Assembly: GCF_003334335.1 (NCBI RefSeq)
Contig: NZ_QOWQ01000246.1
DNA length: 203 bases
Strand: one strand, 5' to 3'
Source: Escherichia coli
Lineage (GTDB): Bacteria > Pseudomonadota > Gammaproteobacteria > Enterobacterales > Enterobacteriaceae
Below the pieces are notes generated by a model. The model ran no database searches. It worked only from the letters and a program-made list of their open reading frames with translations, and was not told the DNA's origin. Shown one piece after another: positions 1 through 203 of this stretch (position 1 is the stretch's first letter; each line of letters starts with the position of its first letter). Made by a program: the position numbers and the translations under genes.

Positions 1-132
1 GACAGGGTTTCCCCGTCTCAGTGGGCGGCAATAGGCGTGCTGGGGAGTCTGCTGTTTGGGCTGCTGACATATCTGACGAACCTGTATTTCAAAATTAAAG
101 AAGACCGGCGTAAGGCGGCCCGGGGAGAGTAG
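1..132 (+). CDS. essQ: Phage holin, class II (phage 21 S / S21 pinholin family), 3' portion with stop codon; 5' end lies upstream of the window
   Basis: Frame 1 is open from base 1 to TAG at 130-132 and translates to [43 protein letters not shown]. This closely matches my recollection of the phage 21 S holin C-terminus (...[26 protein letters not shown](R/K)[10 protein letters not shown]) and the E. coli K-12 prophage holins EssD/EssQ. It has the expected architecture: a hydrophobic Gly/Ala/Ser-rich helix ([23 protein letters not shown]) followed by a short charged tail. I chose essQ over essD only because the downstream gene is not an endolysin, as in the Qin arrangement; essD-like is equally defensible from this fragment. 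Confidence 0.85.
22..90 (+). other. Region encoding the second transmembrane helix (TMD2) of the pinholin, with small-residue (G/A/S) spacing typical of a glycine-zipper-like helix packing face
   Basis: The translated segment [23 protein letters not shown] is 23 uninterrupted hydrophobic/small residues, with G/A/S at roughly i, i+4 spacing ([11 protein letters not shown]). It is followed immediately by the charged tail [13 protein letters not shown]. In S21-type pinholins TMD2 is the pore-lining helix (established knowledge); the exact boundaries here are estimated by eye. Confidence 0.6.
122..129 (+). promoter_or_regulatory. Shine-Dalgarno / ribosome-binding site for the downstream ORF, embedded in the last codons of the holin gene
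   Basis: GGGGAGAG at 122-129 has a GGAG core at 124-127, giving 8 nt to the ATG at 136 (6 nt if measured from GGAGAG, 124-129). The purine-rich run overlaps the holin codons R-G-E and sits just before the stop, an arrangement typical of translational coupling. Confidence 0.6.
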
Positions 133-135
133 ACG

Positions 136-203
136 ATGAATAAACAATACGAACTGGTTGTTAAAGGGATAAATAATTACCCGGATAAGATTACTGTTAC
201 TGT
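136..203 (+). CDS. ydfR: Small hypothetical protein, N-terminal 22 codons only (MNKQYELVVKGINNYPDKITVT...); probably a YdfR-like (DUF1327-type) protein of prophage lysis cassettes; 3' end lies beyond the window
   Basis: ATG at 136-138 is preceded by a well-spaced SD, and the frame is open to the window end. The segment is about 31% GC against about 56% upstream, with codon usage consistent with an AT-rich coding region. The gene symbol is assigned by synteny recall (in the K-12 Qin prophage the order is essQ-ydfR-rrrQ), not by recognising the sequence itself, so treat it as tentative. The N-terminus does not resemble the SAR endolysin of phage 21 or DLP12 (which begins MPPSLRK...). Confidence 0.6.
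   Translation, partial: MNKQYELVVKGINNYPDKITVT

Follow-up and report, generated by a model that had tools for sequence, protein, structure and literature searches.

The 203 nucleotides of Escherichia coli DNA analysed here (the window) raise the question of whether an amber codon that separates two genes lying in the same reading frame is a signal for the synthesis of a fused protein, or merely the seam of a compact operon. Translation of positions 1-201 in frame 1 ends the upstream reading frame with ...RKAARGE, followed by TAG (130-132), ACG (133-135) and ATG (136-138), in agreement with the original prediction that the stop of a holin gene and the start codon of the next gene share a frame with one amber and one sense codon between them. 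We conclude that this is very probably an ordinary tight junction, in which the in-frame amber codon is an accident of one lineage. The features of the window are the following:

1-129, plus strand: 3' part of a gene for a P21-type class II holin, with its final 43 sense codons (residues 29-71), covering the end of TMD1, TMD2 and a charged, putatively cytoplasmic tail (translation, PF04971, PHROG)
122-129, plus strand: Shine-Dalgarno GGGGAGAG of the downstream gene, with the GGAG core at 124-127, 8 nt before the ATG, and lying within the last holin codons (Gly-Glu)
130-132, plus strand: amber stop TAG of the holin, with a mosaic boundary at its third base (131/132); relatives have TAA here
133-135, plus strand: intergenic spacer ACG, 3 nt; in the TAG lineage the spacer is ACG, GTG or ATG
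136-203, plus strand: beginning of a ydfR-like gene (ATG and first 22 full codons; N-terminal DUF1327 domain), which runs beyond the window and encodes 211 aa in PhiR5_1

Gene content of the lysis cassette

Escherichia phage PhiR5_1 (PV340545.1, 21644-21846) and a prophage of E. coli NCTC9112 both match the window with 100% identity. Both records place in it the 3' end of a gene for a 71-aa holin, labelled 'holin protein S / class II holin family protein', and the 5' start of a gene of the DUF1327/YdfR family, and both show the cassette order holin, ydfR-like gene, lysozyme and Rz. The identification of the upstream reading frame as a holin, originally made from the letters of the window, was borne out by the full gene in locus L001 (3917-4132), the product of which matches Pfam PF04971, 'Bacteriophage P21 holin S', with E=8e-33 (residues 5-67 aligned with model positions 1-63 of 64), and additionally the PHROG holin families 9876 (1.8e-40) and 20 (2.4e-34). 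By profile match it is a class II holin of the P21 S family, i.e. of the pinholin type. Its hydropathy peaks at residues 37-51, TMD1 is weakly hydrophobic, and the C-terminal tail has 6 positive and 3 negative charges; since class II holins have an N-in/C-in topology according to the literature on S21 (PMC9636201), this tail is taken to be cytoplasmic. The lysozyme of L001 (5091-5624) begins with MNAKIKYGLSAAVLALIAAGASAPE, a Gly/Ala-rich and weakly hydrophobic stretch (KD 2.05 over residues 9-23). Such an N-terminus is typical of SAR endolysins and suggests that the holin is partnered with an endolysin of the SAR type.

The downstream protein matches Pfam PF07041 (DUF1327) with E=1.8e-39, its residues 1-112 covering model positions 1-92 of 93, as well as PHROGs 2091, 1085 and 406 (the last at 7.7e-61). 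By these profile matches it is the product of a real gene of the YdfR/DUF1327 family that starts at ATG 136. It has no hydrophobic segment, and a coiled-coil module is added at its C-terminus (PHROGs 2091 and 1085). The 211-aa sequence found nothing in the PDB beyond a marginal match to GCN4, through a coiled coil (E=0.36), a single-sequence AlphaFold model (pLDDT 54) was too poor for use, and NCBIfam gave no match for the holin or the ydfR-like proteins. [quoted passage not shown] This RNase E binding is the sole functional report that we found for YdfR, the product of a gene between holin and endolysin, and a search for literature on ydfR together with the holin found none.

The end of the holin gene contains the next ribosome-binding site

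With the GGAG core 8 nt ahead of ATG 136, the ydfR-like gene is equipped with a ribosome-binding site and a start codon of its own; the GGAG-N8-ATG arrangement was found once in the window against an expectation of 0.04. The last sense codons of the holin, GGA GAG, lie within GGGGAGAG. A Shine-Dalgarno motif is kept before every type of downstream gene, i.e. the ydfR alleles and the R endolysin (12 sampled loci, IMG/VR), and very short spacing with this motif inside the upstream coding sequence is present throughout, the spacers being of 3-4 nt before all downstream gene types.

Based on these observations we propose that the window spans an ordinary, compact junction between two genes of the late lysis operon in a lambdoid prophage, at which a P21-type class II holin gene ends with ...GGA GAG TAG and a ydfR-like DUF1327 gene sits between it and a SAR-type endolysin gene. 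The last two sense codons of the holin would double as the ribosome-binding site of the ydfR-like gene, which would initiate independently at its own ATG, 3 nt past the holin stop. RF1 would terminate normally at the UAG in natural sup0 hosts, and we infer that the short distance between the genes promotes efficient, or coupled, translation of the second one.

Stop codon and reading frame among relatives

In a first sample of 12 loci, spread over the identity range, four had TAG + ACG + ATG (frame 0) and eight had TAA + 4 nt + ATG (frame +1), the latter both before ydfR alleles and where the endolysin R comes next. We then scanned IMG/VR with the conserved holin 3' end, leaving the stop open as TRR. 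This yielded 120 loci, 118 of them scorable: TAA + 4 nt (frame +1) in 102, TAG + 3 nt (frame 0) in 16, and two truncated loci, with no TGA stop. The 4-nt spacers of the TAA-type relatives include AGCG, AGTG, TTCA, GACA, TCCA and GCTG. Cassettes of the P21/434 type end differently again, with GAA TAATG, so that the holin stop overlaps the endolysin start in frame +2. This holin family thus includes every possible frame relationship and two different stop codons. A census of 5,426 complete E. coli genomes with near-exact 40-mers centred on the junction gave the following counts:

TAG-ACG junction, MNKQYE (ydfR-like) downstream: 205 places in 162 genomes
TAG-ACG junction, MNHEEM downstream: 65 places in 36 genomes
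TAA-TTCA junction, Qin-type ydfR downstream: 2,364 places in 1,803 genomes
TAA-GCTG junction, R endolysin directly downstream: 1,117 places in 633 genomes
TAA-AGTG junction, MKKKYE ydfR downstream: 1,252 places in 390 genomes

The in-frame amber junction therefore occupies about 270 places against about 4,730 for the three out-of-frame TAA types, or about 5% of those counted, in a census that leaves out the TAA-AGCG and TAG-GTG variants, is to that extent incomplete, and counts places that are not phylogenetically independent. Junctions of this kind are already known, being annotated in thousands of genomes. The original prediction had named the stop identity and frame relationship in homologous cassettes as a check on the significance of the arrangement, and both turned out to be variable. 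As a meaningful conserved feature the arrangement finds no support, since the homologues mostly end in TAA, occur in three frames, and show TAG with frame 0 in a minority lineage only. That most relatives carry another stop codon and another frame argues that the junction is not a readthrough signal.

The suspicion that the shared frame may well be coincidental, arising by chance one time in three, fared better. PhiR5_1 has 11 same-strand gene pairs that lie 0-12 nt apart, and their frame offsets 0/1/2 number 3/4/4, so that same-frame placement (3 of 11) occurs at the expected one-in-three rate. Two other pairs in this phage show an in-frame stop, 3 nt and a start, both with TAA. The sole unusual element of the junction is its amber codon, a stop used by 3 of the 76 annotated PhiR5_1 genes, and this rarity counts against accident.

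The stop codon lies on a mosaic boundary

Many phage matches to the window, from Stx-phages, cover positions 1-131 only, with up to 98.5% identity, and then diverge (boundary at L001 4131-4132), implying that the downstream module supplies the third base of the stop. Both junction types occur behind identical holin protein alleles, and behind identical holin 3' DNA in the case of two 129-nt alleles, which rules out that the junction type is tied to a particular holin allele. Together with the matches that end at 131, this places a mosaic boundary at the stop codon, with the junction type travelling with the downstream module. The linkage in the IMG/VR sample is perfect, TAG going with a 3-nt spacer in 16/16 loci and TAA with a 4-nt spacer in 102/102. 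We accordingly picture the same-frame amber arrangement as a lineage-specific accident of a stop codon situated on a recombination boundary, to which this downstream module would bring 'G ACG ATG' and the commoner modules 'A AGYG ATG', 'A TTCA ATG' or 'A GCTG ATG'.

Among the 162 genomes with the TAG-ACG MNKQYE junction, 161 share the exact 40-mer, so retention of the TAG reflects recent common descent and not long-term conservation. The simplest reading of these sequences would be a single junction haplotype spread by recombination; its common descent would explain the linkage of TAG and spacer, selection for the pair being a counter-reading that is formally still conceivable. A point that counts against accident is the persistence of TAG and frame 0 over the spacers ACG, GTG and ATG, and over downstream genes with and without DUF1327.

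The family linked to the TAG junction is modular, DUF1327 being combined with a coiled-coil segment and a C-terminal module; PHROG 1085 (296 positions) spans all three. The MNHEEM proteins match positions 117-296 of PHROG 1085 only, and share the junction string GAGTAGACGATGAA. From these matches the MNHEEM forms are best regarded as the same gene without its DUF1327 module, all TAG-junction genes constituting one mosaic family. An independent origin of TAG and frame 0 before another gene (MNHEEM...) was considered, and is ruled out by the PHROG 1085 match, the alignment and the common GAGTAGACGATGAA. TAA + 4 nt junctions, too, can be followed by full-length or other long homologues of the downstream gene (183, 268, 296 and 328 aa).

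In our view the eye-catching in-frame amber is of little significance, being a chance property of one mosaic junction haplotype. What the survey does document is a sharp mosaic boundary at the holin stop of lambdoid lysis cassettes, and a very modular gene family in the ydfR slot. The gene between holin and endolysin takes the form of DUF1327 alone (104-116 aa), DUF1327 with a coiled coil (183-211 aa), versions with the C-terminal module (263-328 aa), and versions without DUF1327 (MNHEEM..., 185-222 aa), as seen at L001 4136-4771, L002 4136-4477 and in L005, L015, L034, L037 and L106. The IMG/VR locus L089 reads TAG ATG ATG, the spacer ACG having become ATG, so that the ydfR-like gene has two start codons in tandem. 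At the same locus the holin is frameshifted and has internal stop codons, suggesting a decaying prophage.

Programmed readthrough

The perfect linkage of TAG with frame 0 (all 16 loci), maintained while the spacer varies and the downstream gene takes two forms, is also what one would cite for a second explanation, namely that low-level programmed readthrough has been selected in the TAG lineage and would attach DUF1327 to a small fraction of the holin, giving a membrane-anchored fusion. The conserved position of ydfR between holin and endolysin fits with it as well. However, most cassettes, including some with full-length 296-aa downstream homologues, have TAA and frame +1, the TAG junctions are so nearly identical as to point to recent common ancestry, and the downstream gene has its own Shine-Dalgarno motif and ATG, with a domain model that starts at residue 1. 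Moreover, the junction shows no stimulatory structure and no known recoding RNA. The fold of window positions 85-165 has an MFE of -11.8 kcal/mol, which is not significant against shuffles (z=0.24), and Rfam gave no match at E<=1 for the junction. On these two results, an RNA structure that stimulates readthrough or masks the Shine-Dalgarno motif is ruled out.

True readthrough cases have an extension without an independent start, and conserve both stop and frame; in the coat/A1 readthrough of Q-beta, for example, an in-frame stop is followed by a reading frame that yields an extended protein. Unlike Q-beta coat/A1, the downstream gene here has its own Shine-Dalgarno motif and ATG, and stop and frame are not conserved. 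Three hallmarks of programmed readthrough, a conserved stop and frame, lack of independent downstream initiation, and a stimulatory RNA or recoding element, are thus missing at this junction, and we consider its selection in the TAG lineage highly improbable.

In sup0 cells basal readthrough is low, and only a handful of fusion molecules would be expected from it. They would make up a tiny fraction beside the about 7,000 pinholins per cell cited as the number required to disrupt the membrane (PMC9636201). There is very little to recommend the idea that a fusion product tunes the lysis clock or tethers YdfR, which is reported to bind RNase E, to the inner membrane. Equally improbable is the wider version, in which either natural low-level readthrough or natural suppressor tRNAs would yield a holin-YdfR protein that serves as a modulator of lysis timing or as a tether, late in infection, for the reported RNase E binder.

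Fusion in suppressor hosts

The ordinary-junction explanation is compatible with an incidental product in particular hosts, and in this respect the suppressor logic of the original prediction appears sound in principle. Phagemid display vectors place a TAG between in-frame reading frames, and give partial fusion in supE hosts and separate products in sup0 hosts. The same behaviour is predicted for the present junction in suppressor hosts, although the vectors are engineered whereas the junction is natural and apparently accidental. In supE/glnV44, supF or rare natural suppressor hosts the chances are about even that some holin-Gln-Thr-YdfR, 284 aa from Met1, is made as a by-product, the longer cytoplasmic tail of which could shift the timing of lysis. 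The translation confirms both the shared frame and the lone sense codon between stop and start. Against such a product stand the 213-residue extension, which may leave the pinholin functional, inactive or dominant-negative, and the biology of the phage, which encodes no tRNA and has E. coli C as its recorded host. E. coli C is not known to be a suppressor strain. ARAGORN detected no tRNA either in the lysis region or across 50,000 of the 50,981 bases of PhiR5_1, so the phage carries no suppressor of its own, and a phage-encoded suppressor tRNA is thereby ruled out.

The sequence context and the topology speak for the fusion. With a purine after UAG, especially A, supE suppression is about ten times what it is with C (PMC6266110); the junction reads UAG-A, a context that is favourable for suppression, counts against pure accident and makes the fusion plausible in supE laboratory hosts. 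Furthermore, the N-in/C-in topology of class II holins, the experimental use of S21-68-GFP fusions (PMC9636201), the lack of a hydrophobic segment in the ydfR-like protein, and the listing of K-12 YdfR as cytoplasmic (PMC13232886) suggest that a 284-aa fusion is topologically feasible in supE cells. A practical consequence is that measurements of PhiR5_1-like lysis timing, or cloning of the cassette, in supE44 strains could give a holin-YdfR artefact, which would be avoided by using sup0 hosts or by changing TAG to TAA.

Comparison with known lysis cassettes

A close counterpart in organization is the Qin-type cassette of E. coli K-12 (L008), which has the same order of class II holin, ydfR (DUF1327), lysozyme (rrrQ) and lysis protein, the same holin C-terminus (...RKAARGE) and the same embedded GGGGAGAG Shine-Dalgarno motif. 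It differs in having TAA + TTCA + ATG in frame +1, which is by far the commonest type (2,364 places in 1,803 genomes), and a YdfR of 104-116 aa in most loci, in contrast to the 211-aa mosaic with a coiled-coil extension that begins in the window.

With the S21 pinholin-SAR endolysin system of P21/434 the window's cassette shares a PF04971 holin with potential starts at 1 and 4 (MYQM here, MKSM in the P21-like form) and an endolysin with a weakly hydrophobic, SAR-like N-terminus. In P21/434, however, the endolysin follows the holin directly through the overlapping TAATG (frame +2), whereas here a ydfR-like gene lies between them, behind TAG + 3 nt. The S-R junction of Stx-phages (933W / VT1-Sakai type) resembles the window in the holin 3' end (up to 98.5% identity over 1-131) and in the embedded Shine-Dalgarno motif, but differs in that the endolysin R comes directly next, after TAA + GCTG + ATG in frame +1.

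Additional observations on the cassette and the phage

Both Met1 and Met4 are present in the holin (MYQMEK), a putative dual-start motif from which an antiholin of 71 aa and a holin of 68 aa might be made, with a 3-residue extension that lacks the Lys of MKSMDK alleles. This N-terminal extension (L001 3917-3931) varies among the holin 5' ends of IMG/VR loci, where MYQMEK, MDQMEK, MNQMEK, MKSMDK and IHQMEK were seen. As most alleles are without the Lys of the P21-like MKSMDK, and some (IHQMEK) are without Met at position 1, the antiholin product may not be conserved in this holin subfamily.

On the minus strand, window positions 102-121, inside the holin coding sequence, contain a terminator-like hairpin with a T-run (1 found against 0.2 expected in shuffles); this antisense match is probably due to chance.

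The window's copy of the ydfR-like gene is a partial pseudogene according to RefSeq in NCTC9112, and encodes a 211-aa protein according to the PhiR5_1 record. Its reading frame (L001 4136-4771, plus strand) is overlapped at the 3' end by about 50 nt by a minus-strand reading frame (L001 4719-4979), labelled 'DUF1823 containing protein' in PhiR5_1 and 'hypothetical protein' in NCTC9112. One of the two overlapping annotations may be spurious, or the long reading frame may be a fusion artefact of mosaic recombination.

Elsewhere in PhiR5_1 (L133 7915-9488), a HipA toxin and a 'HipD antitoxin' are annotated as a pair between kil and cI, and may represent accessory (moron) cargo.
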